A stretch of 64,000 nucleotides of DNA from Longimicrobiales bacterium (lineage in GTDB: Bacteria; Gemmatimonadota; Gemmatimonadetes; Longimicrobiales; RSA9). Positions 5,965-43,635 of this stretch are shown here, one piece after another; the first letter of the stretch is position 1, and the number at the start of each line of letters is the position of its first letter. The stretch lies in the NCBI GenBank assembly GCA_036381495.1, contig DASVCS010000059.1, forward strand, positions 2,352 to 66,351, given 5' to 3'. The notes below the pieces were generated by a model. It ran no database searches. It had not been told where the DNA came from and saw only the letters and a program-made list of their open reading frames with translations. The position numbers were made by a program, and so were the translations under genes.

Positions 5965-7356
<1,392 letters not shown>

Positions 7357-10761: not shown

Positions 10762-10833
10762 CTCTTCCGGAGCTGCTCTCTTCCGGACGTGGTTTCCGCT
10801 CTTGCGGACCTGGTTTCACTGTTTCGCGCTCTT
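10762..10833 (+). repeat. decaying tandem reiterations of the outer part of the 32-nt motif
   Basis: Units are ctcttccggagctg, then ctcttccggacgtggtttccg, then ctcttgcggacctggtttcactgtttcgcg, directly followed by the full copy. The last unit supplies the purine-rich stretch before the ATPase-1 ATG. Confidence 0.8.
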
Positions 10834-10865
10834 GCGGACCTGGTTTCACTTTTTCGATTCGTCCC
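10834..10865 (+). repeat. 32-nt ADOP-spacer motif, copy 1 (start-proximal arm of module M1)
   Basis: GCGGACCTGGTTTCACTTTTTCGATTCGTCCC, one mismatch to the consensus. Confidence 0.95.
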
Positions 10866-10991
10866 AAATCGACACCGCGCCGGGTCGCGTCACCCGCGGC
10901 ACGTCGAGGATCGGCCGGCGCCCATCCGGGCGCCGCAGGTGAGCGGGTTCGATCCGGTCGCCCGCGTCTGCGCGGGTCCTCACCGCCTCCT

Positions 10992-11090
10992 CTAGATGCG
11001 GTTCGCCCGTGGGTTCAGGCCCGCGCGGCCGCTCGCTGCGCTCGGTTCGCGGACACGTACGACTCCGAAGCGACGCGACAACCGCTCTAA
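10992..11090 (-). repeat. ~98-nt CTAG-bounded repeat element, copy 2
   Basis: The reverse complement reads TTAGAGCGGTTGTCGCGTCGCTTCGGAGTCGTACGTGTCCGCGAACCGAGCGC...GAACCGCATCTAG. The first ~60 nt are nearly identical to copy 1; the rest is clearly related. Confidence 0.6.
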
Positions 11091-11218
11091 GCTTCCGGCG
11101 ACACGCCTATCGCCGCCGTCAGACGCACCGCGCGACCGTGAGTCGCGCGGATGAGCGGTCCAGCGGGCGAATGCGCGGCCTGCATCCGGGGAGAAGCGTG
11201 CCAGCGGCGCGTTCTGCA

Positions 11219-11247
11219 ATAATATCTTGTACACCAATCAGTTACAA
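11219..11247 (-). promoter_or_regulatory. sigma-70-type promoter candidate (TTGTAA-17 nt-TATTAT) inside module M1
   Basis: On the minus strand, TTGTAA (11242-11247), an exact 17-nt spacer and TATTAT (11219-11224). A conspicuous AT-rich island, oriented toward ATPase-1/ADOP-1. Confidence 0.45.
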
Positions 11248-11491
11248 TGCCCTGACGCCTGCGTCGTCACGCGTTCGGGTGACCGCCGTCGGGACAGCGT
11301 GTCCCAATAGCGGACGGTCCGTTCCACCGGATGCACCGCGTGGCAGCGCCGTGCCGACGATGCCGATCATACCGTGGTCGCGCGCGATCCTGAGTTGCGG
11401 TGGAGCGGGCATGGCTGCATCCCGTGCGCTCCTCGCATTCCGGCCCCGAACGGTCACCGCCCCATCGGAGCGGCCAACCGGACGACTCGAT

Positions 11492-11523
11492 GGGACGAAT
11501 CGAAAAAGTAAAACCAGGTCCGC
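11492..11523 (-). repeat. 32-nt motif, copy 2 (stop-proximal arm of M1)
   Basis: The plus strand reads GGGACGAATCGAAAAAGTAAAACCAGGTCCGC, an exact reverse complement of the consensus with W=T. Confidence 0.95.
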
Positions 11524-11573
11524 CTACTCCAGGTCCGCCTACTCCAGGTCCGCCTACTCCGCCGTCCGCCTAC
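11514..11573 (-). repeat. 15/16-bp tandem repeat x4 at the ADOP-2 stop codon / motif junction
   Basis: The minus strand reads GAG TAG GCGGACGGCGGAG TAG GCGGACCTGGAG TAG GCGGACCTGGAG TAG GCGGACCTGGTTTTAC. Each unit fuses the last gene nucleotides (GAGTAG) to the first 10 nt of the motif. Confidence 0.85.
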
Positions 11574-14038
11574 TCCGCCCGCAACGCCTCCATCGGGTTC
11601 ACGCCGGCCGCCCTGCGGGCCGGGATGTGGCTGGCGAGCAGCGCGACGGCGGCAAGGATCAGGGCGACGCCGGCGAAGGTCAGCGGATCCGTCGCGCTGA
11701 CCCCGTAGAGCAGACTCGAGACGAACCGCGTGAGCGCGAATGCGGCGGCCAACCCGATGGCGACGCCGAGCAGCGCGAGTGTGAGCCCCTGGCGCAGGAT
11801 CATGCGCAACACGCTGCCGGACTCCGCGCCGAGCGCCATACGGATGCCGATCTCGCGCGTTCGCTGGCCGACCGAATACGCCATGACGCCGTAGATGCCG
11901 ACGGCGGCGAGCAGGAGGCCGAGCAGCCCGAAGAGCGTCGTCAGCACGGCACCGATCCGCTGTGTCAGCAGGTCATCGCCGATCAGGTCGGTCAGCGGCG
12001 TGAGGTCGAGGAGCGGGAGCGCCGGGTCGAGTGCGTGGACCGCGTCGCGCACCGCGCGGACGGTGGCGCCGGCGTCGTCTTCGGTCCGGACGGCGAGCAC
12101 CAGCTTCGAGCGGTAGTTCTGCTCCCGCGCGACGAAGATGAACGGCTCCGGCTCTTCACGCAAGGAACTGTACTTGCCATCCGGTACGACGCCGACGACC
12201 AGGAACTCCGCCGCCTCCGCTCCATCGGCCTGGCCGCTGATGATCTGAAACGCGGAGTACGCCTGGACGAATCGCTTCCCGATCGGATCCTGGCCCGGCC
12301 AGAAGTGCTCGGCCATGGTCTGGTTCACGATCGCGGCGTGCGGCGCGTCTTCACGGTCCGCAGTCGCGAACGTGCGCCCGCGCAGCACCGGGATGCCCAT
12401 GGTCCGGAAGTACTCCCCACCGACGACGTTGGCGTGGATCAACTCACCTTCGTCCTCGCCGGCTCCGGCCGGCCGCACGCGCAGCGCCTCCTCACCGGGG
12501 CCGAGGGGCACGCCGACGGAGAAGCTCGCGGATCGCACGCCGGGCACCTGGCGGACGCGCTCGAGGATGCGATCGTAGAGTTGCCGGCCGCGCGGTTCGT
12601 CGTAGCGCTGGCGTTGCAAATCGATCGAGGCGACCCACACGTCATCCGGGTCGAATCCCGGATCGATGCTGAGCGCGTGCTGGAGCGCCCGCAGGAAGAG
12701 GCCGGCCGCGACGAGCAGGAGCAGCGACATGGCGACCTGACCGACGACGAAGCCGTGGCGCAGCCACGCGCTCGGACGCCGGCCGCTGCGCCCCCCGTCC
12801 CTCGCCGGGACCAGTTCGGGCCGTGACGCGCGCAGCGCGGGGATGAGGCTGAACCCGAGCCCGGTCACGAGCGAGAGGAGCAGCGCGAAGCCCAGTACGC
12901 GGCCGTCGGGCGCGAGGTCGAGCGTGACCGGTACCGGCCAGCGGAACGCGAGGAGCAGGTCGGTGAGCCAGACGGCGAGCAGTACGCCGCCCGCGCCGCC
13001 GAGCAGGAAGAGGAGCACGCCCTCGGTCAGGAGTTGCCGGACGATCCGCGCGCGCCCGGCGCCGATCGCCGCTCGGATCACGACCTCGCGCTGGCGTCCC
13101 GCGGCGCGCGCGAGGAGCATCCCGGCCACGTTCACGCCCGCGATCAACAGCACGAGCGAGGTCGCGACGGCGAGCATCGTGAAGAAGCGCAGGAACGAAC
13201 CCTGGCGCGACGTCGGGATCCGGCTCAGCGGGTGCAGCTCGGCGTTCGTGTACTCGAGCGGACCGCCCAGCGCCTCGCCGACCTGCCGCAGCCCCGCGCT
13301 CAACTCGGCCTGCGCCCGCTCGATCGAGATCCCCGGGCGCAGGCGGCCGATCGCTTCCAGCCCGAACCACATCAGGCTGTAGAGACGGCTGTTCGGCACC
13401 ACTCGCTCGCGCAGCGCGAGCGGCGCCCAGAGCCCGGGCGCCCGGTCGATGCCGGTACCGGTGAACGAGGCCGGCGCCACCCCCACGACCGTCGCCGGCC
13501 GTCCGTTGAGCCGCACCGTCCGTCCGACGATCGATGGGTCCGCACCGAAACGCCGCCGCCACAGGCGATCGCTCAGGACGACGCCGGCCGTGGCCGCACC
13601 CCGGCGATCATCGGAAGGCGCCAGCAAACGCCCCAACGCCGGCCGGATTCCCAGCACGCGGAAGTAGTCGCCGGAGACGAACGCGGCCAAAACCTCCTCC
13701 GCGTACTCCTCATCCCCGAAGCTGAGCTGCGCGTCCGCGCGCGCAGCCAGCTCCGCCACGGCGCGGCCCCGCTCCCGCAACGCCTCGAAGTGCGGGAACG
13801 ACAGCGCGAATGGACGGCTCTCGCCCCCGCCGCCGAACGCGCCCAACGCCTGCACGCCGACCAGCCGGTCCGGCTCGCGCACCGGCAGCGGCCGCAGCAC
13901 CAGCGCGTTCACGGCCGTGAACAGCGCCGTGTTCGCACCCACCCCCAGCGCGATCGTGAGCACCGCGACCAACGCGAAGCCGGGGCGACGGAGAAGCATC
14001 CGGCCGGCGTAGCGGACGTCCTGGAGCAGCGTGTGCAT
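11570..14038 (-). CDS. ADOP-2: double-FtsX ABC permease
   Basis: [40 protein letters not shown] ... PARRAAGVNPMEALRAE; 822 aa. Confidence 0.9.
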   Translation of the reverse strand: MHTLLQDVRYAGRMLLRRPGFALVAVLTIALGVGANTALFTAVNALVLRPLPVREPDRLVGVQALGAFGGGGESRPFALSFPHFEALRERGRAVAELAARADAQLSFGDEEYAEEVLAAFVSGDYFRVLGIRPALGRLLAPSDDRRGAATAGVVLSDRLWRRRFGADPSIVGRTVRLNGRPATVVGVAPASFTGTGIDRAPGLWAPLALRERVVPNSRLYSLMWFGLEAIGRLRPGISIERAQAELSAGLRQVGEALGGPLEYTNAELHPLSRIPTSRQGSFLRFFTMLAVATSLVLLIAGVNVAGMLLARAAGRQREVVIRAAIGAGRARIVRQLLTEGVLLFLLGGAGGVLLAVWLTDLLLAFRWPVPVTLDLAPDGRVLGFALLLSLVTGLGFSLIPALRASRPELVPARDGGRSGRRPSAWLRHGFVVGQVAMSLLLLVAAGLFLRALQHALSIDPGFDPDDVWVASIDLQRQRYDEPRGRQLYDRILERVRQVPGVRSASFSVGVPLGPGEEALRVRPAGAGEDEGELIHANVVGGEYFRTMGIPVLRGRTFATADREDAPHAAIVNQTMAEHFWPGQDPIGKRFVQAYSAFQIISGQADGAEAAEFLVVGVVPDGKYSSLREEPEPFIFVAREQNYRSKLVLAVRTEDDAGATVRAVRDAVHALDPALPLLDLTPLTDLIGDDLLTQRIGAVLTTLFGLLGLLLAAVGIYGVMAYSVGQRTREIGIRMALGAESGSVLRMILRQGLTLALLGVAIGLAAAFALTRFVSSLLYGVSATDPLTFAGVALILAAVALLASHIPARRAAGVNPMEALRAE

Positions 14039-14047
14039 GAGGTCCTC

Positions 14048-16471: not shown

Positions 16472-16513
16472 GATTCCTCCGCGGTTGCGGACCGGGCGTC
16501 GGTATGTCGATCC

Positions 16514-16544
16514 GGGACGAATCGAAAAAGTAAAACCTGGTCCG

Positions 16545-16545
<1 letters not shown>
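16514..16545 (-). repeat. 32-nt motif, copy 3 (solo copy S1)
   Basis: The plus strand reads GGGACGAATCGAAAAAGTAAAACCTGGTCCGC. Its last base is the first base of the ADOP-4 stop codon (cta at 16545-16547). No inverted partner in this 73-nt spacer. Confidence 0.95.
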
Positions 16546-18947
<2,402 letters not shown>

Positions 18948-18995
18948 GGTCGGTCGTATCCTCTCAATGCGAATCGGCCACCGTCCGGCCTCCGT

Positions 18996-21401: not shown

Positions 21402-21431
21402 CGGTTGTGGCTCCGGTTGCGGGTTCCATGA

Positions 21432-21463
21432 GCGGACCAGGTTTTACTTTTTCGATTCGTCCC
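21432..21463 (+). repeat. 32-nt motif, copy 4 (start-proximal arm of M2)
   Basis: GCGGACCAGGTTTTACTTTTTCGATTCGTCCC, exact. Lies 30 nt from the ADOP-5 ATG. Confidence 0.95.
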
Positions 21464-21775
21464 ATATTGGCACAGGCCTGGCGCATCCGGTGACGTGCCG
21501 ACCGGACATACCGGTCCGGCGCGGGACGGACGCACTTCGGACCTGCGCGGCCGAGTGCGAGTGCGGCCGGGTCGCAGTCGCGGCGCGATCCGGGCTCGAC
21601 GCCGCGCAGATGCGCTGCGCGATATGCAGGGTCCCTTGCTCCCGCGCACGCGCTCACGTGGCGGCACGCAGCTCCGGACCGGTGCGGGTTCCGCCTGGCG
21701 TCCGGTGCCACGAACCAGTGCGTCGAGCCTCCGCTGCCAGACCGATTTCGGGATCAGCCAGAACCCTGTCGATCC

Positions 21776-21807
21776 GCGGCGAATCGAAAAAGTAAAACCT
21801 GGTCCGC
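21776..21807 (-). repeat. 32-nt motif, copy 5 (stop-proximal arm of M2)
   Basis: The plus strand reads GCGGCGAATCGAAAAAGTAAAACCTGGTCCGC, with two mismatches at the inner end. Lies 29 nt from the ADOP-6 stop. Confidence 0.9.
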
Positions 21808-21836
21808 GGACCTCGGCGCGGGTCCCGCCGCCCCCG

Positions 21837-24299
21837 CTACTCCGCCCGCAGCGCGACCATCGGGTCCACACGCGTCGCGCGGCGCGCCGGGATGGTGCTC
21901 GCCAGCGTGGCGCTCGCCGCCAGCGTGAGTGCGACCATGGCGAAGGTCAACGGGTCGCGCGCGGAGACGCCGTAGAGGAGCGCGTCCAGGAGTCGGGTCG
22001 CGGTCCATGCGCCGGCGAGCCCAAGGACCAGCCCCACGGCGACGGGCCGCATCCCCTGCCCGACCACCAGTCGGAGGATCTGGCGATCGCCCGCGCCGAG
22101 CGACTTGCGCACCCCGATCTCGCGCGTGCGCTCGGCCACGAGATAGGCGACGACGCCGTAGAGCCCGACGGCCGCGAGCCCGAGCGCCAGCACGCCGAAG
22201 AGCGTGAAGAGCAGTGCGCCCAGTCGGAACGGCAGCATCTCGGGGCGCAGCGTCGCCTCGAGCGACTGCACGTCGACGTAGGGGAGGTCCGCGGCCAACC
22301 CCTGAACCACGCTCCGCACCGTCGGTGCGAGCGCGGCGGACTCGCCACGGGTTCGAATCAGCAGATGCGGCATGAAGAACGCGAAGCCGGCCGACATCGG
22401 GGACTGGGCGGACGCCAGGAACGCTTCCGGGATGATCTGCTCATCGAGGTAGCGATAGCGCGCATCGGCCGCGACTCCGACAACGCGCGTGCACCCGCCC
22501 TGCTGTGTCTGCTCCATGAGCGCGAGGCACATCCCGACCGCATTGCCGTCGGGGGTGAGCAGCCGTGCGAACCGCTCGTTGATGATGACGACGCGCTCGC
22601 CCCCCGCCCGATCCTGCTCGGTGAAGCCGCGCCCTCGGACGATCGGCATGCCGACGGTCCTGAAGTAGTCGGGCCCGACGATGTTCATGTACGGGCCCTC
22701 GTCGACCGCCGTGCTGTCCCAGCCGGGCGCCTCGACGGCGAGCCCCATCGAGTTGCCGTCGAACGGCGCGAGCAGCGCGATACTCGCCGCCTCGACGCCC
22801 GGCAATGCGCGCAACCGCTCGAGCGCGCGGTCGTAGAAGGCCTTCCGGCCGGCCGCGTCGTAGCCCGCGCGTTCGAGGTCGACCGAGACGGTGAGCAGAC
22901 GGTCGACATCGACGCCGGGATCCACGGCGGACACTGCGCGGAGCGAGCGGAGGCAGAGGCCGCTCGCGACGAGGAGCACGACCGAGAGCGCGACCTGTAC
23001 GCCGACGAGCGCGCTACGACCGCGGCCGCGCGTGGCGCGTGCGGCCGACATCGTCGCCTGGAGGCCGGCGACCGGTTCCCCGCGGGCCGCGGCGAGCGCC
23101 GGCGCGAGCCCGAAGAGCAGGCCGGTGAGCACCGAGACCATGGCGGTGAATCCGAGGATGCGCGCATTGAAAACGCCGTGCGTGGCCGGCACCGGGAAGC
23201 GGTCGGTCAGTTCGGCGCCCCAGAGCGCGATCACGAGCGCGGCGGCGCCGCCGGCGAGCGCGAGGACGAGGCTCTCGGTCAGGAGCTGCCGCACGATCCG
23301 ACGGCGGCCCGCGCCGAGCGAGATCCGGAGCGCGATCTCGCGCCGGCGCGTCGTCGCCCGCGCGAGCAGCAGGTTCGCCACGTTCGCGCACGCGATCAGC
23401 AGCACGACGGCGGTCGCGACCGCGAGCACGAGAGCGAGATCCGCCTCCGTCGAGCGGCGCGGCCCTCGCGCGGTGTTCAGCGGCCCGGTGATCACGGAGG
23501 GCTCGGGATCGAGGCCGTCCACGGACTCCGCGGCGTGGCGCAGCACCGCCGTTGCACTGGCGATGGCCTGCGCCGGCGTCGCGTCCGCCGCCAGCCGTCC
23601 GAGGAAGCCCACGAACAGCATGAGCGGCGTATCCCGCCACCCCTGGGGGGCCAGCCCCATCGGGCCCGTCATCGCGAGCGGCAGCCAGACGTCGAGCGGC
23701 TCGGCATCGATTCCGCCGAACGCCTCGGGCGCGACGCCGACCACCGTGAAGGTCTGGCCGTTCAGGAGGATGGACCGACCGAGCACGTCCGGGTCACCGC
23801 CGAACTCGCGCTGCCAGAAGCCGTGTCCCAGGACGACGACGGGGTGCGCACCAGGATCCTCGCCCTCCTCCGGCAGGAAGAACCGACCCAGCGCCGGCCG
23901 CACGCCGAGCACCGAGAAGAACTCCGGCGAGACCGGCCGCCCGCGCAACCGGCGCGCCGCCTCGCCCCGGCCGTAATCGAGATCTCGCGGGAAGGTGTAC
24001 GCCGCGAGCCCGTCGAACCCGCGCGCACCCTCCCGCAGCGCACGGAAATCCATGTACGAGCCGGCACCGCCGTTCGGCGTCCGAACCGCGCCGGTCCGCC
24101 GCACGATGTACAGCCGCACCACCTGGTCCGGCTCGCGCACACCCGCCGGCGGTCGCAGGAAGAGCCCGTCCAGCACACCGAACATCGTCGCGTTCGCGCC
24201 GATCCCGAGCGCGAGCGTCAGCACCACCACAACGGCGAAGCCGGGGCTGCGCCGTAGCGTGCGCACCGTGTAGCGGACATCCTGGAGCAGTGTTTCCAT
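21837..24299 (-). CDS. ADOP-6: double-FtsX ABC permease
   Basis: [40 protein letters not shown] ... [17 protein letters not shown]; 820 aa. Confidence 0.9.
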
Positions 24300-24530
24300 G
24301 AGCGCCCCCTCTCGTCATGGTGCTTCCGACAGCGGTTTCGCCGGATCCGTTCCTTCATCGAACCCTGCGGGAGGGACCCCGGCCGCTGAACGGATGACAC
24401 GCGCGGATCCGGATACGAGGCCGGTCGCGGCGAGTCACCGCTCGGCCCCAGGGGCAACGAAGCGGCCCGTGCGGGCCGCGCCGCCGGCACGGCAGGCGGT
24501 GGACTCGACGGAACCCGATCCACCGCTCAG

Positions 24531-24545
24531 GGAAGGCCCGTGCCA
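24531..24545 (-). promoter_or_regulatory. sigma-54-like -24/-12 candidate (TGGCACGGGCCTTCC)
   Basis: The minus strand reads CTGGCACGGGCCTTCCC, a perfect -24 TGGCACG with correct spacing to TT, but the -12 reads TTCC instead of TTGC. About 230 nt upstream of the ADOP-6 ATG. Confidence 0.3.
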
Positions 24546-24824
24546 GCACGGCACGACGCCCCAATCACTTGTATCACAACGAGATCAAACGCAACGTGGG
24601 GAGTGGGGCGGCCGACCGGTCGTCCGCCTGCGGGATCGGCCGTCCCGAAAGCGGACACCCGGGCGCGCCCGGCGACCGAGTTCGAACGCGCACCGCGCCA
24701 CACCATTGCTGCGGGTCCCGTGAAGGGCATCGGCCGACCGGCCGATCTCATGCGGGGGATCGACGGCGGGTGCCGGGCCGCAGCCCGAGGCGACGCCGCG
24801 CCCGCCGCGTCCCGGGCTCGTCGC

Positions 24825-27272: not shown

Positions 27273-27320
27273 AGTCCTCTCACTCGTCTGGCGGACCTGG
27301 CTTTCGTTACCGCGTGGCAA

Positions 27321-27360
27321 ACCTGCCGTCCGGCGGACCTGCCTGCCGTCCGGCGGACCT
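27321..27360 (+). repeat. 20-bp tandem duplication covering the outer end of motif copy 6
   Basis: acctgccgtccggcggacct / gcctgccgtccggcggacct. The second unit runs into the full motif. Confidence 0.85.
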
Positions 27361-27384
27361 GGTTTTACTTTTTCGATTCATCCC
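27353..27384 (+). repeat. 32-nt motif, copy 6 (start-proximal arm of M3)
   Basis: GCGGACCTGGTTTTACTTTTTCGATTCATCCC, one mismatch. Confidence 0.95.
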
Positions 27385-27717
27385 ACCGGATCCGTACAAT
27401 GGCCAATCGAATCATGCGGCAGCCGGTGCCGCTGTGGTACAGCCCCGCGACGCACGGACTTCAGCCAGATACGCGGGCAAGGCACTCAACCACCGAACCC
27501 TCCGGATCGCACGCTTACACCGTGTGCCGGTTGAGTCGGAAGCCGTGCGGCCGTCCGCCGATCGTGCCATAGCACCATCGCAGCACAGCACGCAGCTCTG
27601 CCGCCCTTGGCTCGGTTCCGCCCGGCGGGCTGTGTACACGCCGGTGGGTCGAGTCTCCTGTCCATCGGCGTGCTCCGGGCCGACGGATTTCACCGGCAGC
27701 CAATCCCCTACCGATCC

Positions 27718-27748
27718 GGGACGAATCGAAAAAGTAAAACCTGGTCCG

Positions 27749-27749
<1 letters not shown>
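27718..27749 (-). repeat. 32-nt motif, copy 7 (stop-proximal arm of M3)
   Basis: The plus strand reads GGGACGAATCGAAAAAGTAAAACCTGGTCCGC, exact. Its last base is shared with the ADOP-8 stop codon (cta at 27749-27751). Confidence 0.95.
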
Positions 27750-30163
<2,414 letters not shown>

Positions 30164-30202
30164 GGCAATCTCAACTCCAGTGCGTTGCCGGCGTCCCATC
30201 CA

Positions 30203-32677: not shown

Positions 32678-32686
32678 GGGGAACTC

Positions 32687-35113: not shown

Positions 35114-35220
35114 CGAAGGCTCCGGTTCCGATCAGCGCGAGCACGGGCGCCACGCGCGTCGGGCGGCGGACCGGGCGAGGACCGTCACCCGTACACGGTG
35201 CAAATGTTCGCCTGATCAAG

Positions 35221-35235
35221 GGAAGGGGCGTGCCA
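35221..35235 (-). promoter_or_regulatory. sigma-54-like -24/-12 candidate (TGGCACGCCCCTTCC)
   Basis: The minus strand reads ATTGGCACGCCCCTTCCCTTG, ~108 nt upstream of the ADOP-10 ATG and ~160-200 nt downstream of motif copy 8. The -12 reads TTCC rather than TTGC. Confidence 0.35.
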
Positions 35236-35396
35236 ATGTGGCGTAGAGATCCAAATCACTGCCACAAAACAACATGCGGCCCTGCGGGCGCCCGGCGCCG
35301 CCCCGGCGACCGTCCGGTTCCGGGAATCGCCGTCCCGGACGCGGACAATGTCCGGCGAACGGGGTGGTCGCGTTCGCGGAGCTGGTCTTCGTATTC

Positions 35397-35428
35397 GCGG
35401 ACCTGGTTTTACTTTTTCGATTCGTCCC
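35397..35428 (+). repeat. 32-nt motif, copy 8 (start-proximal arm of M4)
   Basis: GCGGACCTGGTTTTACTTTTTCGATTCGTCCC, exact. Confidence 0.95.
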
Positions 35429-35719
35429 ATCGGGTCGCCCGGATGGCCGATCCGGTGAGCCGGCCACCGACTACCCTGATGGCACCGGATCGCACCGCTT
35501 CCACCAGGCGCTCCCGACCGAGCCCCCGATCGCGTAGCCACGGCGTGGCCGGGGTCGATCACCGCGCGGGCGCTCGGCTCGCCGCGCACCAGACAGCACG
35601 CATGGCCGGCGTGGTTTCCGTCGCGGAGGGCATCCCACCGACCCCCGCACCGAACCTCCCCCCGCCGTTCGGAATCCTGCGGTGGCCAATTTCGAAACCA
35701 GCCAACACGCTGCCGATCC

Positions 35720-35751
35720 GGGACGAATCGAAAAAGTAAAACCTGGTCCGC
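35720..35751 (-). repeat. 32-nt motif, copy 9 (stop-proximal arm of M4)
   Basis: The plus strand reads GGGACGAATCGAAAAAGTAAAACCTGGTCCGC, exact. Lies 4 nt from the ADOP-11 TGA stop (35756-35758). Confidence 0.95.
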
Positions 35752-35755
35752 CTAT

Positions 35756-38164
35756 TCAATCCGCCCGCAGCGCCACCATCGGATCCACCCGCGCCGCGCG
35801 CCGCGCCGGGATCCAGCTCGCGAGCAGTCCGACGCCGCCGAGCACGAGCGCGACGGCCGTGAACGTCCCGGGGTCCGTCGCGCTGACCTCGTAGAGCATG
35901 CTGGCGACGACGCGGCTGAGCGCGAACGCCGCGACGAGCCCGATGCCGAGCCCGACCGCGACCATCGCCATCCCCTGGCGCACGACGAGGCCCACGACGT
36001 TGCCGTGCTTCGCGCCGAGTGCCACGCGGATGCCGATCTCGTGCGTCCGCTGTCGCGCGGTGTAGGCGACGACGCCGTAGATGCCGATCGCGGTGAGCAC
36101 GAGTGCGAGCCCGGCGAAGGTGGTGAGCAGGCGGGCGCGGAAGCGCTCGGCGGCGATGGATGCGCCGACGACTTCGGTCATCGGGCGCAGCCGCAGGATC
36201 GGCTGCTGGGAATCGGCCTCATGGATCGCTTCGCGGAGCGCGGCCACGACCGCCGCCGGGTTGTCGGTCCGGACCGCGAACGCGGCCATGAACCAGTTGT
36301 TCATCGCGCGGGTCATCCCGTCGCTGAGCTGCGCGCGGGGGATGAAGGCGGTGGGGCGCGCGCTCGCATCGAGGTCGATGTCCTTGATGTCGCGCACCAC
36401 GCCGACCACGACCCGTTCCGGTCTGTCGACCGCGATCCGCGCGCCGAGCGGGTCGTAATCGGCGAGGAACCGGCGCACGAACGCCTCGTTGACGAGCGCG
36501 ACGGGGGGTGCGCCCGCGTCGTCGGACTCGGTGAAGCCGCGGCCGCTCACCACCGTCGCGCCGAGCGTCCGGAGCAAGTCGGGGCTCACGGCACGGACCT
36601 CGATCACGTCGCCACGCCGCGGCCCGGGCGAGAGAATGCGGGCGCCGGTGTTCAGTCCCCGCTCGAGCGGCAGGTTGGATGCGGAGCCCGCGGCGACGAC
36701 GCCGGGCAGTCCCCGGATCCGGTCGAGCACCTGTCGCTCGAAGCGCCATGTCGCCGCCGTCGTCGTGTAGCGCTCGGGCGGGAGTGCGAGCTCGGCGGTG
36801 TAGACGCCCTCGGGCTCGAAGCCCAGCTCGACGCCGCTCAGCCGGAAGTAGCTGACGATGAACAGGCCGGCGCCGATCAGCAGCACGACGGAGAACGCGG
36901 CTTCGGCGGCGACGAGCAGGCCACGGGCGTGCAACCGCCGCGCACCGCCTGCCCGGGTGCGGCCCCCTTCTCGCAGCACGTCCGCGACGTCGGGTCGGGC
37001 GGCGCGCACCGCGCCCGCGAGCCCGACGGCGATCCCGGTCGCGAGCGAGACGGCCAGCGCGAAGCCGAGGACGCGGGTGTCGAGTCCGACGCGGTCGAGC
37101 CCCGGAACACCGGCCGGCGCCAGCGCGAGCACGGCGTCCAGCCCCCAGGCGGCGAGGACCAGCCCGGCGCCGCCCCCGGCCAGCCCGAGCAACACGCTCT
37201 CCGCGAGCAGGTGGCCGAGGATCCGGCCGCGGCCGGCGCCGAGCGCCGCGCGGACGGCCAGCTCGGCACGCCGCGCGGCAACGCGCCCCAGCAGCAGGTT
37301 CGCGACGTTCACGCACGCGATCAGCAGCACCAGCCCGACCGCGCCGAAGAGCACCCAGACGGCCGTATCGCGGCCGGCCACCAGGTAGTCGCGGTACGTC
37401 GCCGTCTCGAAGTGCTGGCCTCCGTCGATGGCGCCCGGGTCCATCGCCGCGAACCGCTCCGTGAACGCATCCGCCTCCGCCTGCAAGCGCTCGCGCGAGA
37501 TGCCCGGCTCGAGTCGGCCGAACGCCCGATAGTTGTGCCCCTGGTCGCGCGGGTCCACGACCAGCCGCAGCGGCGCGAGGACGTCGACCCCCGCGGGCGC
37601 GAAGCCGGGCGGCATCACGCCCACCACCATGTGCGGCGCGCCATCGAGCGTGATCGTCCGCCCGACCACCCCCGAATCCGCACCGAAGCTGCGCCGCCAC
37701 ACCCCATCGCTCAGGATGACGACCGCCGGACCGCCCGGCACGTCCTCCTCGGGAAGGAACGCCCGGCCCAGCGCCGGCATCACGCCGAGCACCTGGAAGT
37801 AGCCGTCGGAGACCAGCTCGCCCGCGAGCTGCTGCGGCTCGGCACTGCCCGTCAGCACGTACTGCGTCTCATCCGTGATGGCGAACGCCTCGAACGCCTC
37901 GCTGGTCTCCTTCCAGAGCTGCGCCTGTGCCGGCGTGAGCGCCATCGTGTTCCCACGGCCCGGGCCCCAGTTCCACCCGACCACCGCGAGCCGCTCCGGC
38001 TCCGGCCACGGCGCCGGATGCAACACCGTGCCGTCCAGGACGCTGAAGATCGCGGTGTTCGCCCCGATCCCGAGCGCCAGCGTGAGCACGGCCACGGCCG
38101 TGAAGCCGGGGGTTCGGCGCAGTGCGCGCGCGGCGTAACGGAGATCCCCTAGCCATGTGTTCAT
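35756..38164 (-). CDS. ADOP-11: double-FtsX ABC permease
   Basis: [40 protein letters not shown] ... [17 protein letters not shown]; 802 aa. Confidence 0.9.
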   Translation of the reverse strand: MNTWLGDLRYAARALRRTPGFTAVAVLTLALGIGANTAIFSVLDGTVLHPAPWPEPERLAVVGWNWGPGRGNTMALTPAQAQLWKETSEAFEAFAITDETQYVLTGSAEPQQLAGELVSDGYFQVLGVMPALGRAFLPEEDVPGGPAVVILSDGVWRRSFGADSGVVGRTITLDGAPHMVVGVMPPGFAPAGVDVLAPLRLVVDPRDQGHNYRAFGRLEPGISRERLQAEADAFTERFAAMDPGAIDGGQHFETATYRDYLVAGRDTAVWVLFGAVGLVLLIACVNVANLLLGRVAARRAELAVRAALGAGRGRILGHLLAESVLLGLAGGGAGLVLAAWGLDAVLALAPAGVPGLDRVGLDTRVLGFALAVSLATGIAVGLAGAVRAARPDVADVLREGGRTRAGGARRLHARGLLVAAEAAFSVVLLIGAGLFIVSYFRLSGVELGFEPEGVYTAELALPPERYTTTAATWRFERQVLDRIRGLPGVVAAGSASNLPLERGLNTGARILSPGPRRGDVIEVRAVSPDLLRTLGATVVSGRGFTESDDAGAPPVALVNEAFVRRFLADYDPLGARIAVDRPERVVVGVVRDIKDIDLDASARPTAFIPRAQLSDGMTRAMNNWFMAAFAVRTDNPAAVVAALREAIHEADSQQPILRLRPMTEVVGASIAAERFRARLLTTFAGLALVLTAIGIYGVVAYTARQRTHEIGIRVALGAKHGNVVGLVVRQGMAMVAVGLGIGLVAAFALSRVVASMLYEVSATDPGTFTAVALVLGGVGLLASWIPARRAARVDPMVALRAD

Positions 38165-38287
38165 GTGCAGCTCCTCGAGGATTCGATGGATCGGTCCCGC
38201 TCATCCGCGGCGGCATGTCCTGCAGGCCGGCATCCGGCGGCGAACCGGGACCCGGACCATGATCACGCCGCGCGCATTTCCATTCTC

Positions 38288-40711
38288 CTACTGCTCCCTC
38301 AGCGCCACCATCGGATCGACGTCGGCGGCCCGATGCGCCGGGAGATGGACGGCGATCAGCGTCACGGCCGCGAGCACGAGTGCGACGCCGGCGAAGGTCG
38401 CGGGGTCCGCCGGGTCCACGCCATAGAGCAGGCTGGAGAGGATGCGTGTCAGTGCGAGCGCCGCCACGATTCCCACGGCCAGCCCGGCCAGCGCGGGTGC
38501 GATCCCCTGAACGATGATCAGCCGAAGCACATCGCCCCTCGTCGCGCCGAGCGCGATGAGGATGCCGACCTCGTACGTGCGCCGGCTGACGGTGTACGCG
38601 ATCACGCCGTAGACGCCCAGTGCGGCGAGGATGAGCGCGAGGCCGCTGAAGCTGCCGAGCAGCAGCATGAGGAAGCGGGGCCGGGCGACCGTATCGGAGA
38701 CCACCCGCTGCATGGTCGTGACGCCGGAGATCGGTTGATCCGGGCTCACATCCCAGATCGCCCGCCGGATGGCGCCCGCGAGCCGCACGGGGTCGGTGGC
38801 GGTCCGGACGAACAGCTTCATGCTCGAGCGCGGCGCCAGATACATGGGGACGTAGACCGCCGGTCCCGGCGCCTGTGCGATTCCGTCGTTCCTCACGTCG
38901 CCGACGACACCCACGATGCGGAACTCGGATTCACCGGATCCGAGACTCTTGCCGACCGGGTCCTCACCGGGCCAGTAGCGCCGGGCCATGGCCTGGTTCA
39001 CGATCACCACCGGCGCGCCGTTCGTCTCATCCGCGGCCGTGAACACCCTCCCGCGCACAAGCGGGATTCCGAGCGCACGGAAGTAGCCCGACGAGACGAT
39101 GAACCCGCCCGATTCCGGCGTGATCGAAGACGCGTCGGTGCGGCCCGGCAGGGAGAACGAAAAGGGTTCGCCGCCGCCCCGCAGCGGGATCGTCTTGCTC
39201 GCGCCGACGGCCAGCACGCCCGGAAGGTTCGCGACCCGGTCGAGGATCTCGCGTCTGTACACGTTGCGTCGATCGCCCTGCGCGATCTCCGATGGCGTCG
39301 AGAGGCTGAGCGTGAGTACGTTCTCGCTGCTGAAGCCGGGATCGACGCGCGTAAGGTTCCAGAAGCTGCGGATCAGGAGACCCGCGCCCGCCAGCAGGAC
39401 GACCGCGAGTGCCGTCTCCGCGACGACGAACAGCCGGCGCATCCCGTGGCGCCGGCCGCCGGCGGTACCGCGCCCGCCTTCCTTGAGCGCCTCCCCGACG
39501 TCGACGCGCGAGGCGGTGAGCGAGGGGACGAGGCCGAAAACCACGCCGGTGAGCACGGAAACCGCGAGGGTGAAGCCGATGACCCGCGCGTCCAGTCGGA
39601 TCGCGTCCGGCCGCGGGATCGTCCCGGCGCTCAGGGACACGAACGCGTCGACGCCCCAGAACGCGAGCGCGAGACCGACGCCACCGCCGGCGAGCGCCAG
39701 CGCCACGCTCTCGGTGAGGAGCTGCCGAACCACGCGGGAGCGGCCGGCGCCGAGCGCCGCGCGGATCGCGAGCTCCCGGCTGCGCGCGTTGCCGCGGGCG
39801 AGCAACAGGTTGGCCAGGTTGGCGCAGGCGATGAGCAGCACGAGCGCCACCGCGCCGAGCAGGACGAGCAGCGCAGGGCGCACCTCGCCGACGAGCGACT
39901 CGCGCAGCGGGACCACCGTCGCCGAACCCCACCCCTCGTTCGTCTCCGGATATGCGCTCTCGAGACGCCGCAGAACGGTGTTGGTCGCCGACGTCGCCGT
40001 CTCGATCGTCGCACCCGGCGCGAGGCGCCCGAGCGCGGCGATCCAGCGGAGTCCCCGGACATGAGGGATGTCATCCTCGCCGATCAGCGACAGCGGAACC
40101 CAGATCTCCGTTTCCGGAGAGGGGAAGTCGAAGGACGGCGGCATGACACCGATGACCGTGAACGACTCGCCGTCCAGCGAGAGCGTCCGTCCGACCACGC
40201 CAGGATCGGATCCGAACCGGCGGCGCCAGAATCCGTCGCTCAGGACGACGACCCGGTCCGCGCCCGGCACGTTCTCGTCCGCTCCCGGCACGCGGCCCAG
40301 CGCGGGAGGCACGCCCAGCGCCGCGAAGAATTCGGCGGAAACGAACGCCGTCTCGAGCTCCCGCGGCTCACCGCCACCCACGAGGATCGTTTCGCTCTGC
40401 CCCGGGACGAAGTAGTACCCCGCCAATCGCTCGTAGACGACGTTGTCGCGCTTCAGATCCTCGAAGTCCTGTGGCGAGAACGCACCGGGCGTGACCGCGA
40501 AGCCGTTCTCGGGCGCGCGGTGCAGAACCCGGACCAGCCGCTCCGGCTCCGCGAACGGCAGCGGTTCGAGAAGCACGCCGTCGACCACGCTGAAGATGGC
40601 CGTGTTCCCGCCGATCCCGAGCGCCAGCGTGAGCACGGCCACGGCCGTGAAGCCGGGGGTACGGCGCAGCGAGCGAAACGCGTACCGCAGGTCCTGAAGC
40701 AGGTCGCCCAT
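38288..40711 (-). CDS. ADOP-12: double-FtsX ABC permease
   Basis: [40 protein letters not shown] ... [17 protein letters not shown]; 807 aa. Confidence 0.9.
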   Translation of the reverse strand: MGDLLQDLRYAFRSLRRTPGFTAVAVLTLALGIGGNTAIFSVVDGVLLEPLPFAEPERLVRVLHRAPENGFAVTPGAFSPQDFEDLKRDNVVYERLAGYYFVPGQSETILVGGGEPRELETAFVSAEFFAALGVPPALGRVPGADENVPGADRVVVLSDGFWRRRFGSDPGVVGRTLSLDGESFTVIGVMPPSFDFPSPETEIWVPLSLIGEDDIPHVRGLRWIAALGRLAPGATIETATSATNTVLRRLESAYPETNEGWGSATVVPLRESLVGEVRPALLVLLGAVALVLLIACANLANLLLARGNARSRELAIRAALGAGRSRVVRQLLTESVALALAGGGVGLALAFWGVDAFVSLSAGTIPRPDAIRLDARVIGFTLAVSVLTGVVFGLVPSLTASRVDVGEALKEGGRGTAGGRRHGMRRLFVVAETALAVVLLAGAGLLIRSFWNLTRVDPGFSSENVLTLSLSTPSEIAQGDRRNVYRREILDRVANLPGVLAVGASKTIPLRGGGEPFSFSLPGRTDASSITPESGGFIVSSGYFRALGIPLVRGRVFTAADETNGAPVVIVNQAMARRYWPGEDPVGKSLGSGESEFRIVGVVGDVRNDGIAQAPGPAVYVPMYLAPRSSMKLFVRTATDPVRLAGAIRRAIWDVSPDQPISGVTTMQRVVSDTVARPRFLMLLLGSFSGLALILAALGVYGVIAYTVSRRTYEVGILIALGATRGDVLRLIIVQGIAPALAGLAVGIVAALALTRILSSLLYGVDPADPATFAGVALVLAAVTLIAVHLPAHRAADVDPMVALREQ

Positions 40712-40756
40712 GTGCTGTCTCCTGTTCGGCGCGCCGGGTGCGATGACCGGAGCCGC

Positions 40757-43249
40757 TTACTCGCCTCGCAACGTGACCATCGGGTCCACGTTGCTCGCGC
40801 GCCGGGCCGGGATGTAGCTCGCGAGCAGTGCAACGCCGCCGAGCACGACCGCGATGCCCGCGAAGGTCATCGGATCCGCCGTGCCCACGTCGTAGAGCAT
40901 ACCGCTGAGGAAGCGGGTCAGAACGAACGCGGCGAGGAGACCGACCGCGATGCCGGCCAGAGCGAGGACCGCGCCCTGCCCCACCAGCAGCCGGACCACC
41001 GATTCGCGCCGTGCGCCGAGCGCCATGCGGATCCCCACCTCCTGCGTCCGCTGCGTCGACAGGTACGAGACCACGCCGTAGATGCCCATGACCGCCAACA
41101 GCAGCGCGGTGGCGCCGAAGGTGCCGATCAGGAGCAACGCGAAGCGCTGGGCGGAGAGCGATGCCGAAAAGATCTGCTCGAGCGTGCGGAAGCGCAGGGG
41201 CACCTCGGGGTTCAGCCCACGCACGATCCGGCGGGCCGACGCGATCATCCCTGCCGGTTCGATCGAACCGCGCATGACGACGCTGTATCGGAACGTCTTC
41301 AGCGGCCGCTGCCGCGAATTGGCGTAGAACGTGGGTTCCGGCTGCGCCACGAGACTCCGCTCCCGGACGTCGCCCACGATGCCGATGATCGTGAACGGCC
41401 GCAGGTCGCCGTCCATGTTGCCGAACTCGATGAGCTTGCCGATCGGGTCCTCGTTCGGCCAGCGGGCCTCCGCGAGGGATTCGCTGATGACTGCGACGTG
41501 CGGGGCGTCGGGGCCGTCGCGCTCGTCGAAGAGGCGCCCGCGCACGAGCGGGATCCCCATCGCCTCGAAGTATCCCTGGCTCGCAACCCGGAACTCCGCC
41601 GAACCGGTGTGCGTCGGGTCATCGAACATCCGATCGAGCCGCGCCATGAGCGCCGGCTCGCGCATGAGCTGCTCGAAGCTCGTCATGCCGGCAACCTGGT
41701 CCGGGCTGTCGAGGATGATGAACGTGCCGTTGCCCCCGCTGCCGGTCAGCGGGAAGACGTTCACGCCGCCGGCCGCCTCCACGCCGGGGATCGCGCGCAG
41801 CCGGCCGAGCAGCTCCGTGTAGAAGCGCCCGGTCCGTGCCTTCGCGGCCTCGTCCTCCGGGGAGGGCAGCCAGAGATCCATCACCACCGCCCCCTTCGTG
41901 CGGAATCCCGGATCGACCGCGAGCACGCGCAGGAAGCTGCGCGCGAGCAGCCCCGCGCCGACCAGCAGCACCAGCGTCAGCGCGACCTGCGACGCGGCGA
42001 GGATGCGACGGATCCGGTGGCCCGATGCCCCGCCGGTCTGTGTCCGCTGACCATCCGCGAGCGACCCGCGCACGTCCGTGCGCGTCGCCCGCAACGCCGG
42101 CGCAAGACCCAGCGCGACGGCCGCTCCGAGCGCAACGGCCAGCGCGAAGAGGAGCACGGCCCAGTCCACGCCGACCTCGTCGAGACGCGGCAGACCGCCC
42201 GGCTCGAACGCGAGCAGCGCGGGCACGCCCCAGACGGCCAGCAGCATTCCCAGCACGCCGCCCGCGAGGCACAGCACGAGCGCCTCGGTCAGGAACTGCA
42301 CGGCCAGCCGCCGTGCGCCTGCGCCCAGCGCCAGCCGGATCGACAGCTCCCGCTGCCGCGCCGCCATCCGCGCCAGCAGCAGGTTCACCACGTTCGCGCA
42401 CGCGATGAGCAGCAGGAACCCCGCCGCGCCCAGAAGGATCAGCAGCATCGGCCGCGCCCGGCCGACGAGTTCCTCGCGCAACGGGACCACGGCCGCATCG
42501 GACATCCGGGTATCATCGCCGTAGCGGGCCTTCAGCCGCCGCGCGACCGCAGTCAGGTCACTGCGCGCCTGCTCCAGCGCCACGCCATCGCGAAGGCGGC
42601 CGATCACCCGGAAGTTGTGGCCCGTGCGGGTCTGGTTGGCCAGCGATGCATCGCTCGGCAGCCACAGCTCGGTTCCCGCCGGAAACGAGAAGCCCGGTGG
42701 CATCACACCGATGACCGCGTACGCGCGGTCACCGATCCGCACGACGTCGTCCGAAAGATCCCGGTCGCCGCCGAGCCGGCTCTGCCAGTAACCGTAGCCG
42801 ACCACCGCCACCGCCGGGCCGGCCACGCCCAGCTCCTCCGGCAGGAACACCCGCCCGAGCGCCGGCTCCACCCCCAGCACATCGAAGAACCCGGACGTCA
42901 CCCACGCCGCGCCTACGCGGATCCCCTCGCCGCCGGCGGTGACCGACGCGGTGCTGCTCCCGTACGCGCCCATCGCCTCGAAGCTGCGGCTCTGATCGCG
43001 CAGATCCACGTAATTCGGATAGGACACGCTGAGCTGTGACCCGCCGCCCTCGCCCACCTGCCGGATCTGCACCACCTCATCCGGCTCCGGATACGGCAAC
43101 GGCCGCAGCAGCACGCCGTTGACCACGCTGAAGATCGCAGTGTTCGCGCCGATGCCGAGCGCGAGGGTGAGCACGGCGACGGCCGCGAAACCGGGGTTCC
43201 GGCGCAGCGTTCGGAGTGCGTAGCGAAAGTCGTGGAGCAGTCTATCCAT
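40757..43249 (-). CDS. ADOP-13: double-FtsX ABC permease
   Basis: [40 protein letters not shown] ... PARRASNVDPMVTLRGE. The second ATG (43249) is preferred because GAGAGG lies 6 nt upstream; the alternative start is 43255. Confidence 0.88.
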   Translation of the reverse strand: MDRLLHDFRYALRTLRRNPGFAAVAVLTLALGIGANTAIFSVVNGVLLRPLPYPEPDEVVQIRQVGEGGGSQLSVSYPNYVDLRDQSRSFEAMGAYGSSTASVTAGGEGIRVGAAWVTSGFFDVLGVEPALGRVFLPEELGVAGPAVAVVGYGYWQSRLGGDRDLSDDVVRIGDRAYAVIGVMPPGFSFPAGTELWLPSDASLANQTRTGHNFRVIGRLRDGVALEQARSDLTAVARRLKARYGDDTRMSDAAVVPLREELVGRARPMLLILLGAAGFLLLIACANVVNLLLARMAARQRELSIRLALGAGARRLAVQFLTEALVLCLAGGVLGMLLAVWGVPALLAFEPGGLPRLDEVGVDWAVLLFALAVALGAAVALGLAPALRATRTDVRGSLADGQRTQTGGASGHRIRRILAASQVALTLVLLVGAGLLARSFLRVLAVDPGFRTKGAVVMDLWLPSPEDEAAKARTGRFYTELLGRLRAIPGVEAAGGVNVFPLTGSGGNGTFIILDSPDQVAGMTSFEQLMREPALMARLDRMFDDPTHTGSAEFRVASQGYFEAMGIPLVRGRLFDERDGPDAPHVAVISESLAEARWPNEDPIGKLIEFGNMDGDLRPFTIIGIVGDVRERSLVAQPEPTFYANSRQRPLKTFRYSVVMRGSIEPAGMIASARRIVRGLNPEVPLRFRTLEQIFSASLSAQRFALLLIGTFGATALLLAVMGIYGVVSYLSTQRTQEVGIRMALGARRESVVRLLVGQGAVLALAGIAVGLLAAFVLTRFLSGMLYDVGTADPMTFAGIAVVLGGVALLASYIPARRASNVDPMVTLRGE

Positions 43250-43309
43250 GGTCATCCTCTCGATCAGGGGCTTCGGCCCGCCCGTTGCCTTGGTAGACCC
43301 GTCGCCATC

Positions 43310-43341
43310 GCGGACCAGGTTTTACTTTTTCGATTCGTCCC
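43310..43341 (+). repeat. 32-nt motif, copy 10 (start-proximal arm of M5)
   Basis: GCGGACCAGGTTTTACTTTTTCGATTCGTCCC, exact. Confidence 0.95.
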
Positions 43342-43603
43342 ACAGCGTCACCTGGCTGGCCGATCCGGTAGTGCGCCAACCGGACGTATCCGTGGAACGA
43401 GAGGCGCACGGCTTCGGACACGTGCCCCGGATCGCACAGCCGCCCCGCGACCCGCATTGGCCGCCACGCGAATGCTTGATCCACGCTCGCGTGCCGGCAC
43501 GCACGTCCGGCCCCGGCGCCGCCCTGTGGACCGCCCCACAACCAGGTGGGTCGAGCCGCCGCCAACCGGCTGATATCGGGATAAGCCAATGCCCTGGCGA
43601 TCT

Positions 43604-43635
43604 GGGACGAATCGAAAAAGTAAAACCTGGTCCGC
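43604..43635 (-). repeat. 32-nt motif, copy 11 (stop-proximal arm of M5)
   Basis: The plus strand reads GGGACGAATCGAAAAAGTAAAACCTGGTCCGC, exact. It directly abuts the ADOP-14 TGA stop (43636-43638). Confidence 0.95.

Follow-up and report, generated by a model that had tools for sequence, protein, structure and literature searches.

The attC sites of integrons, of which the Vibrio repeats known as VCRs are an example, are species-specific, near-identical to one another, and located after the open reading frames (ORFs) of cassettes in a co-oriented array. Repetitive extragenic palindromic (REP) units are each a G+C-rich palindrome, and the partners within bacterial interspersed mosaic elements (BIMEs) or REP doublets forming hairpins (REPINs) stand tens of nucleotides apart. 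In Bacteroides fragilis, a set of invertons carries one inverted-repeat sequence and is served by one master invertase. Invertons, or invertible promoters, can thus form sets with one common inverted repeat (PMC11602134). The sfx sites used by Rci in R64-type shufflons are asymmetric, ~31 nt long, arranged in alternating orientation and conserved on one side only (PMC11852207, PMC4176322, PMC5430464). Finally, the Correia repeat-enclosed elements of Neisseria are non-coding, ~100-155 bp long and bounded by terminal inverted repeats of ~26-32 bp (PMC10969869, PMC2649163). Here, we describe a 32-nt motif, GCGGACCWGGTTTTACTTTTTCGATTCGTCCC, that recurs within an array of ADOP-family permease genes in a 64,000-nt stretch of a metagenome-assembled genome (MAG) of a Longimicrobiales bacterium (GenBank assembly GCA_036381495.1, contig DASVCS010000059.1, positions 2,352 to 66,351), referred to in its full length as the window. 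Most copies of the motif bound small non-coding modules. [quoted passage not shown] They are a MITE-like or recombination-site variant that agrees in full with none of the systems listed.

Our preferred reading, to which we assign a probability of about 0.45, is that a lineage-specific family of small non-coding DNA modules has the 32-mer as its terminal recognition sequence. These modules would be non-autonomous and site-specifically inserted at ADOP 3' boundaries, with termini that serve as sites for a recombinase or transposase encoded elsewhere. An earlier note made from the sequence of the window had counted 11 copies with 0-2 mismatches each, ten of them in five inverted pairs and one unpaired. 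A scan at ≤3 mismatches recovers exactly these 11 and the same pairing (modules M1 to M5 and a solo copy; Table 1), and dinucleotide-preserving shuffles contain no match (0/100). The mismatch distribution is bimodal, with 11 copies at 0-2 mismatches, none at 3-9, then one at 10 and one at 11, the 10-mismatch match being a partial tandem copy at 10804. The earlier claim that the motif occurs nowhere else in the window holds for intact copies, with none in the 31 kb beyond the array, but fails for a decayed pair at 50094-50125 and 49908-49935. Strand order alternates along the 11 copies, the solo copy excepted, which is also the arrangement of transposon ends and of Rci sfx sites (PMC11852207, PMC4176322). 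The 32-mer itself is asymmetric rather than palindromic, with neither dyad nor direct-repeat symmetry, and forms an A/T-rich island in 71% G+C DNA. Alone it is not a hairpin, as had been noted (minimum free energy 0 kcal/mol, worse than its own shuffles).

Around the motif, the modules share a common anatomy. Each has inverted termini of 32-38 bp, a second inverted box of ~10 bp (box 2, TGGCYGATCC) found on both arm types ~15-35 nt inside the motif, and a variable centre, for a typical total of ~330 bp. With every copy oriented to read GCGGACC...GTCCC toward the module interior, GGATCG comes next at the stop-proximal ends of M2-M5 and in the solo copy, giving a conserved stop-proximal 38-mer that is 95-100% identical between copies. 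Because the start-proximal ends continue differently, there are two end types per module. Pairwise identity averages 0.24-0.37 directly outside the motif and 0.92-1.00 inside it; moving inward, it is 0.46-0.60 between the motif and box 2, ~0.75 within this box and 0.28-0.41 at the centre. Module centres are therefore only as similar to one another as random G+C-rich DNA would be. The interiors are also non-coding, as their cross-module similarity is alike in all six frames and they carry no GC3 signal. That the flanking genes are strongly diverged paralogs was confirmed: they are ADOP-family permeases with merely 37-54% protein identity to one another. Since the best outside homolog of one array permease is 61% identical, the paralogs predate the split from that homolog, and the array must be ancient. 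Near-identity of the motif across such old paralogs had been taken to imply selection, gene conversion or recent spread, and this holds; it is sharpened by the decayed pair, which lies at a dead ADOP fragment.

This fragment is found at the head of the array. Between the first ATPase gene and A15, the first of the permease genes A15 to A1, ~185 nt (50126-50310, minus strand) give on translation a C-terminus typical of ADOP proteins (...LLYGV..DP..F....LL..VAL.AS..PARRA.RVDP...), with the stop codon mutated. The presence of such a pseudogene fragment downstream of the first ATPase gene points to a past deletion at the array head. In register with the lost stop lies a motif copy, GCGGACCgGGTcggGCTccTcaGgTTCGcCCC, followed by GGtTCG, in which the A/T core has turned G/C. 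Its inverted partner, aligned with one 2-nt gap, is found 158 nt further on and 58 nt upstream of the A15 start, with a recognisable box 2 beside it. Together, the scores of both arms of this decayed module (M6) were reached in 0/2000 shuffles and 0/417 real windows, and across ~128,000 positions on both strands a match with ≤11 mismatches outside the family occurs at a single position, a partial tandem copy. M6, next to its dead gene, has diverged to roughly the same degree as those parts of the live modules that are free of constraint. Because M6 shows the decay that follows once constraint is gone, the intact termini of M1-M5 and the solo copy are being maintained and not merely inherited. 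M6 and the dead gene thereby provide an internal neutral control, which permits an argument for in-place selection on a MITE-like element.

The second line of evidence is placement. The distances to the upstream stop codons given in the earlier note are correct: the motif overlaps a TAG at 16545 and at 27749 (the latter being the stop of A8, overlapped by the stop-proximal terminus of M3), directly adjoins a TGA at 43636 and follows a TGA by 4 nt at 35756. At 11570 it is joined to the stop through reiterated partial copies, and at 21837 it is 29 nt away, with the stop itself adjoined by a partial copy (TAGCGG...). With M6 and the partial copies at A2 and A6 counted, a full or partial copy is found 0-4 nt from a stop codon in 7/7 cases, and the same end type is next to the stop in six of the seven modules. 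On the other side, all five modules M1-M5 lie 31-284 nt upstream of the next gene start. In the order [A14] M5 [A13-A11] M4 [A10-A8] M3 [A7] gap [A6] M2 [A5-A4] solo [A3-A2] M1 [ATPase2-A1], the modules split the array into blocks, each with between one and three genes in tight coupling, and the module-free spacers within these blocks measure 3-123 nt. A search for target-site duplications found flanking direct matches no better than those of shuffled flanks (p = 0.12-0.99 for the best), although very short or eroded duplications may exist. Placement that is precise, oriented and without duplication argues for a site-specific recombinase or a targeted transposon rather than untargeted DDE transposition. 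The last codons of the upstream gene were also considered as a part of the element and rejected, as the C-terminal codons of module-adjacent genes do not cluster. A pre-existing palindromic target, GCGGACCWGGTCCGC, was likewise set aside: it has 18 matches at ≤3 mismatches against ~10 expected, all with 3 mismatches, and no convincing empty site of this kind is found behind an ADOP stop.

Two modules seem to have been rearranged. Over 58 nt, M1 agrees at its stop-proximal end with the start-proximal end of M4 to 93%, whereas in the same orientation the motif alone matches. The alignment score for the arms only is 19, compared with a shuffle null of 3.9 +/- 1.8 and a maximum of 12, and a repeat analysis (repeats I2/I3) agrees. 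By these comparisons, the interior of M1 is inverted relative to M2-M5; that the other end of M1 is of the stop-proximal type is suggested more weakly. M1 is enlarged, with an interior of 626 nt. It also holds a nested, unrelated repeat of ~100 nt at 10998-11089, the inverted copy of which is located at 3552-3643 (82% identity over 92 nt, 91% over 55 nt). This repeat has CTAG-type ends, its outer copy lies between two small ORFs near 3.6 kb, and it is possibly another tiny mobile element. As for the solo copy, it is 100% identical over 37-38 nt to the ends of M3 and M4, and 18 nt beyond it stands CCGGTCCGC, which equals the outer tip of an inverted partner minus one central base. The ribosome-binding site of A3 comes after this string and the A3 start codon ~20 nt on. 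Judging from its sequence, the solo copy is probably an internally deleted module, but a similar string in the M2 flank makes the call insecure.

The edges of the modules carry a further record in the form of partial copies of the motif, most of them direct; just outside several ends, these comprise its outer 9-16 nt. At M1, between the module and the A2 stop, GCGGACCTGG occurs at 11529-11538 and 11544-11553 within a series of repeated units whose boundary falls after motif position 8 or 9; on the opposite side, the last of the degenerate partial copies supplies the ribosome-binding site of the ATPase gene. The start side of M3 has an exact duplication with an unambiguous boundary between motif positions 9 and 10 and a further GCGGACCTGG at 27291, 42 nt away. 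The start side of M4 has a degenerate partial copy at 35376-35391, and the stop-proximal edge of M2 a head-to-head palindrome, GGTCCGCGGACC. Both the 15-nt triplication at M1 and the 20-nt duplication at M3 end at position 9/10 (CCWG^G) and show no microhomology. Of the presumed partner of the solo copy, the outer 9 nt alone are left, so that this remnant ends at position 9/10 too. We read such clustered breakpoints as an apparent sign that DNA was repeatedly broken and joined at one set position within the site. The same core is also where the copies vary: the central W of CCWGG is T at 10834, 11492, 27353 and 35397 and A at the other seven copies. Extra direct partial copies of GCGGACCTG lie outside each of the four W=T ends, and the seven W=A ends have none (Fisher p ~0.003). 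As the two arms of M3 and those of M4 differ at W, the CCWGG cores of these modules are direct and not inverted.

How do these features compare with those of the known systems? Like MITEs, the modules are short elements with terminal inverted repeats and lack coding capacity, and like the Correia elements they are intergenic next to or between presumably co-transcribed genes, may carry promoters, have the potential for long hairpins, and include internally deleted variants. They differ in lacking target-site duplications, in interiors that are alike only at random level and in near-invariant termini. Moreover, they stand at the stop codons of one gene family in 7/7 cases, are confined within the window to a single array and are 326-690 bp long, and no cognate transposase was found for them in the window. 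A similarity to the terminal repeats of the Tn3 family is doubtful, as the register is inconsistent. As in inverton sets, segments of less than ~700 bp with the same inverted repeat lie upstream of operon units with envelope functions, and M1 encloses a putative promoter and has the opposite orientation to its paralogs. However, a recognisable promoter is present in only one of five segments, the window holds no invertase gene, and a repeat of 32-38 nt is at the long end of the inverton range. The likeness to a shufflon lies in many asymmetric sites of alternating orientation in one locus, conserved on one side of the presumed crossover and with a variable flank beyond it; in R64, segments of 0.1-0.5 kb are invertible. 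In contrast, sfx sites lie within coding sequence and swap C-terminal exons, whereas the 32-mer sites lie at or after the stop codon, and the window contains no Rci homolog. The subterminal box was tried as an sfx site (GTGCCAATCCGGT, core plus right arm) and gave 25 matches at ≤3 mismatches compared with 21 expected, a chance result.

The resemblance to attC arrays is that the modules, with their variable centre, are bounded by inverted repeats behind the ORFs of a co-oriented array; unlike cassettes, they occur only every one to three genes, their length and cores are different, and there is no integrase in the window. With REP and BIME sequences they share a location at 3' gene ends within operons and an arrangement as inverted pairs of two slightly different end types (PMC3184786). 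They differ in that the 32-mer does not fold, is A/T-rich, and has its partner at a spacing of 260-630 nt. A MITE/REPIN-like element with a target at ADOP 3' ends was among the explanations first offered for the motif. The targeted MITE-like half of it is among the best fits, while the REPIN-like half is unsupported because the 32-mer unit is not a palindrome. A recombination site, also offered then, has gained from the flipped and deleted modules, the breakpoints at 9/10 and the asymmetric, alternating site, and likewise belongs to the best fits.

In terms of mechanism, a recombinase or transposase encoded elsewhere would bind the termini together with box 2 and would break and join DNA near motif position 9/10 (CCWG^G). 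By this reaction, the modules would have come to lie at ADOP 3' ends, with one orientation preferred. Recombination between paired termini would then have inverted at least M1, whose presumed sigma-54-type promoter would now face the ATPase gene. Continued use of the termini would subject them to purifying selection while the rest of the module drifts. The sequence itself shows the anatomy, the island-like conservation, the decayed control, the flipped and deleted modules and the clustered breakpoints; the enzyme, its cleavage position, any present-day activity and any regulatory use we infer. Several points weigh against this reading. No recombinase or transposase gene is present in the 64-kb window, and there are no significant flanking direct repeats. 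A recognisable promoter is found in M1 only, so that M2-M5 have no evident payload. All 15 permease genes are co-oriented, meaning that no inversion of a large block has become fixed. Conservative recombinases do not normally make tandem duplications such as those at the module ends. Searches of other genomes, metagenomes, viruses and plasmids found the motif nowhere else, which denies mobility or inversion any comparative or population support. Co-transcription of the paired arms would yield an RNA duplex of 32 bp, and two of the seven arm differences can be read as G-U pairs on the sense strand; decay of M6 once its upstream gene was dead would also fit a function tied to the transcript of that gene.

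A more specific form of the same idea is programmed rearrangement, in which a dedicated recombinase would invert the modules, and possibly the gene blocks between opposed 32-mers, in the manner of a shufflon. We regard this as doubtful. If true, rearrangement would switch which of the 15 ADOP permease sub-operons are expressed or insulated, amounting to phase-variable substrate choice by an export pump in Gemmatimonadota with a common MacB-type ATPase, membrane-fusion protein and outer-membrane channel. An invariant repeat at 3' gene boundaries, with one module flipped around a putative promoter, offers a handle on inversion switching, cassette exchange and transcript partitioning. Read-level proof of active inversion would make the modules considerably more interesting, whereas a plain MITE private to this lineage would be of local interest only.

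Such a MITE is the most familiar alternative. It would have arisen by deletion from a DDE-type insertion sequence found elsewhere in the genome, and would be mobilised in trans, tolerated only in the short spacers of the array and of no host function, with termini that look conserved only because the copies are young. The terminal inverted repeats, the length of ~330 bp, the lack of an ORF, the several copies and the long predicted hairpin are all as expected, as is the occurrence of elements in both orientations; a nested second repeat, an internal deletion and a decayed copy make up the usual life history of a MITE family (PMC10969869). Yet young copies should have alike interiors and target-site duplications, where we find centres at random level and no significant flanking repeat, and old copies should have decayed termini like those of M6, where we find eleven with 0-2 mismatches and none intermediate. 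Since neither expectation is borne out, a plain MITE is disfavoured whether young or old. Untargeted insertion would also not lead one to expect abutment to stop codons in 7/7 cases and a common orientation in 6/7. Beyond the array, the remaining 31 kb of the window contain no copy. Overall, we consider a plain MITE unlikely. An RNA device, the long-range stems of the earlier note, would instead have the co-transcribed arms form a duplex, with an RNase III cut or a block to read-through splitting the transcript in a Correia-like manner, and selection on the duplex would keep the sequence fixed. Cleavage by RNase III has been documented for the inverted-repeat stems of MITEs (PMC10969869, PMC2649163). 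Read-through is plausible because no promoter can be recognised that belongs to the units following M5, M3, M2 and the solo copy. The stems themselves are indeed predicted: in two modelled folds (-197 and -205 kcal/mol, z about -6 to -7), the arms pair in a 32-bp stem that is extended by a box-2 helix. The stem, with 0-2 mismatches, is predicted in M4 and M5, compared with the arm duplex of at least ~22 bp that such a device calls for. On the sense strand, two of the arm differences still allow G-U pairing, and M6 decayed once its upstream gene had died. What speaks against pairing as the selected property is that the sequence is identical between modules, beyond complementarity within them. 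Of the seven positions at which paired arms differ, five disrupt the pairing, among them the central W of M3 and M4; no compensatory change is seen, and the modules show no covariation (covariation term -0.44). The partnerless solo copy is perfect over 38 nt, and the breakpoints at 9/10 and the reiterated outer partial copies are left unexplained. Nor does any Rfam family match: with Rfam 15, nothing in the window reaches the gathering score, and the modules yield only chance-level miRNA matches (E ≥ 0.58). The stems thus stand as predictions, and a device based on them seems rather improbable as the explanation of the motif.

Conservation of sequence rather than of pairing is what one would expect of a double-stranded DNA site for a regulator or nucleoid protein, for instance the local NtrC-family activator, with paired sites looping or insulating the sub-operons. 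The fixed sequence of the A/T-rich island in 71% G+C DNA agrees with this, and the same locus holds an NtrC-type two-component system and sigma-54-like sites. On the other hand, 32-38 nt without dyad or direct-repeat symmetry is atypical for such regulators, the motif has no consistent position relative to the four sigma-54-like promoters, and the flipped module, the deletion and the end duplications go unexplained, making a protein site of this kind very unlikely. We would place still less weight on integron-like cassette boundaries, with one to three permease genes plus a module being excised and re-inserted by a site-specific integrase. The inverted-repeat bounds, conserved ends, variable centres and location directly 3' of ORFs in a co-oriented array are in its favour. 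So is a resemblance of GTTTTAC...GTAAAAC to the attC cores, RYYYAAC...GTTRRRY, at 6/7 positions. However, attC sites span 57-141 bp and the modules 326-690 bp, the AAC/GTT triplets that are invariant in attC are missing, modules follow only some of the genes, and the window contains no intI, attI or tyrosine recombinase; such boundaries are hardly credible here. Of all the explanations, the non-autonomous modules with recombinase or transposase sites at their termini remain the one that we prefer.

The promoter content of the locus bears on what an inversion could achieve. A promoter-like region in M1 (11188-11247, minus strand) faces the downstream ATPase gene. It includes a sigma-70-like match, TTGTAA-17-TATTAT (11247-11219, minus), which is the sole match of sigma-70 type in 10-30 kb, and a sigma-54-like match, TGGCACGCTTCTCCC (11203-11189, minus), which lies between the termini and points toward the same ATPase gene. 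Scans for sigma-70 and sigma-54 sites found no recognisable promoter inside M2-M5, and the sigma-54-like site at M4 lies outside the module. There are four perfect TGGCACG -24 boxes, all on the minus strand, at 52835-52849, 35221-35235, 24531-24545 and 11189-11203; these are upstream of the HlyD gene, A10 and A6, with one in M1. The sequence upstream of them is partly common, with a TGATTGG motif ahead of both A10 and A6. It is plausible from their sequence and setting that the four sites are sigma-54 promoters served by the local NtrC-type regulator. In the same order, however, their -12 boxes read TTGG, TTCC, TTCC and TCCC where the canonical box is TTGC, which may reflect a lineage-specific variant or may mean that the sites are not sigma-54 promoters at all. 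The subterminal box was rejected as a sigma-54 promoter, being without the -12 GC, and the motif itself was rejected on inspection as a sigma-70, extracytoplasmic function (ECF) or sigma-54 promoter, since its spacings and key bases do not fit.

Searches were extended beyond the locus. A 20-mer of the motif gave five matches in 185,579 species-representative genomes, all in low-G+C taxa, where the full 32-mer has at least 7 mismatches or no match at ≤9. Two of these chance matches, in low-G+C MAGs (L001, 199-230, and L005, 5839-5870), have an identical 44-nt context, probably a stretch conserved in these genomes that has no relation to the element. A 25-mer had no match in the JGI metagenomes, a 19-mer spanning the inner end and arm had 18 matches, all by chance, viral contigs held no copy of the motif, and plasmids gave nothing at the termini. 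The earlier note had proposed looking for the motif in related genomes. Seven ADOP-homolog loci from relatives (53-61% identity) carry neither the motif nor comparable inverted repeats, and their spacers are tight or short; synteny between the array and one locus (L006) is too unclear for an empty site to be called. Because the motif is absent from every collection searched, all inference rests on one 64-kb stretch of one MAG. As for the enzyme, no recombinase, transposase, or tyrosine or serine recombinase domain is present in any plausible ORF of the 64 kb, and the window has no intI, attI or Pc.

Table 1. Features of the ADOP permease locus, the modules and their partial copies (window positions; the strand of individual termini is given in the last column)
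Feature	Positions	Strand	Remarks
Outer-membrane efflux protein	52984-54522	-	
HlyD-type adaptor	51508-52794	-	
First ABC ATPase	50399-51136	-	
15 tandem ADOP-family duplicated permeases (TIGR03434)	49850 down to 7574	-	profile match, E down to 0
Second ABC ATPase	10053-10754	-	interposed within the permease array
NtrC-family response regulator	5965-7356	-	followed by PAS histidine kinase
M1	10834-11523	-	690 bp; termini 10834-10865 (+, 1 mismatch) and 11492-11523 (-)
M2	21432-21807	-	376 bp; termini 21432-21463 (+) and 21776-21807 (-, 2 mismatches)
M3	27353-27749	-	397 bp; termini 27353-27384 (+, 1 mismatch) and 27718-27749 (-)
M4	35397-35751	-	355 bp; termini 35397-35428 (+) and 35720-35751 (-)
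M5	43310-43635	-	326 bp; termini 43310-43341 (+) and 43604-43635 (-), both perfect
Solo copy	16487-16545	-	perfect 38-nt stop-proximal end (16514-16545 + GGATCG), 12 nt arm, CCGGTCCGC at 16487-16495
M6 (decayed module)	49908-50125	-	copy 50094-50125 (21/32); inverted partner 49908-49935 (21/30)
Reiterated partial copies	11524-11569	-	between A2 stop and M1; (GAGTAG + motif positions 1-9) three times plus one variant
Degenerate direct partial copies, 2-3	10770-10833	+	outer 14-25 nt + CTCTT flank; from M1 to the ATPase start codon
Exact 20-nt tandem duplication	27322-27361	+	(CCTGCCGTCCG + motif positions 1-9); M3 start-proximal edge

The modules belong to a large MacB-type export locus that occupies 7574-54522 on the minus strand, the strand on which nearly all genes of the window are found; the G+C content of the window is 69-74%. 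In soil Acidobacteriota and Gemmatimonadota, few gene families have expanded as far, or are as poorly understood, as the ADOP permeases. The locus bears on how a choice is made among 15 tandem paralogs with a common ATP-binding cassette (ABC) ATPase, adaptor and outer-membrane channel, and the sharing of two ATPases by 15 permeases is a question in its own right. One protein of the window is identical (100%) to HEX7049884.1, which lies on a 153-kb contig and is annotated as an ABC transporter permease of a Longimicrobiales bacterium. The sole plausible ORF on the plus strand of the array (46113-47156, 347 aa) lies in a 1.1-kb gap between A15 and A14. It has a coding-like codon-position G+C, and its Pfam matches are sub-threshold and of coiled-coil type only. 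Within the permease genes, a repeat family of 13 copies (D18) includes a coding stretch of 35 nt that is 100% identical at 18066-18100 and 23355-23389. The paralogs that hold it are ~42% identical overall, and the eleven other copies of the family are 74-94% identical. The identical stretch could reflect strong constraint at the codon level or local gene conversion between paralogs.

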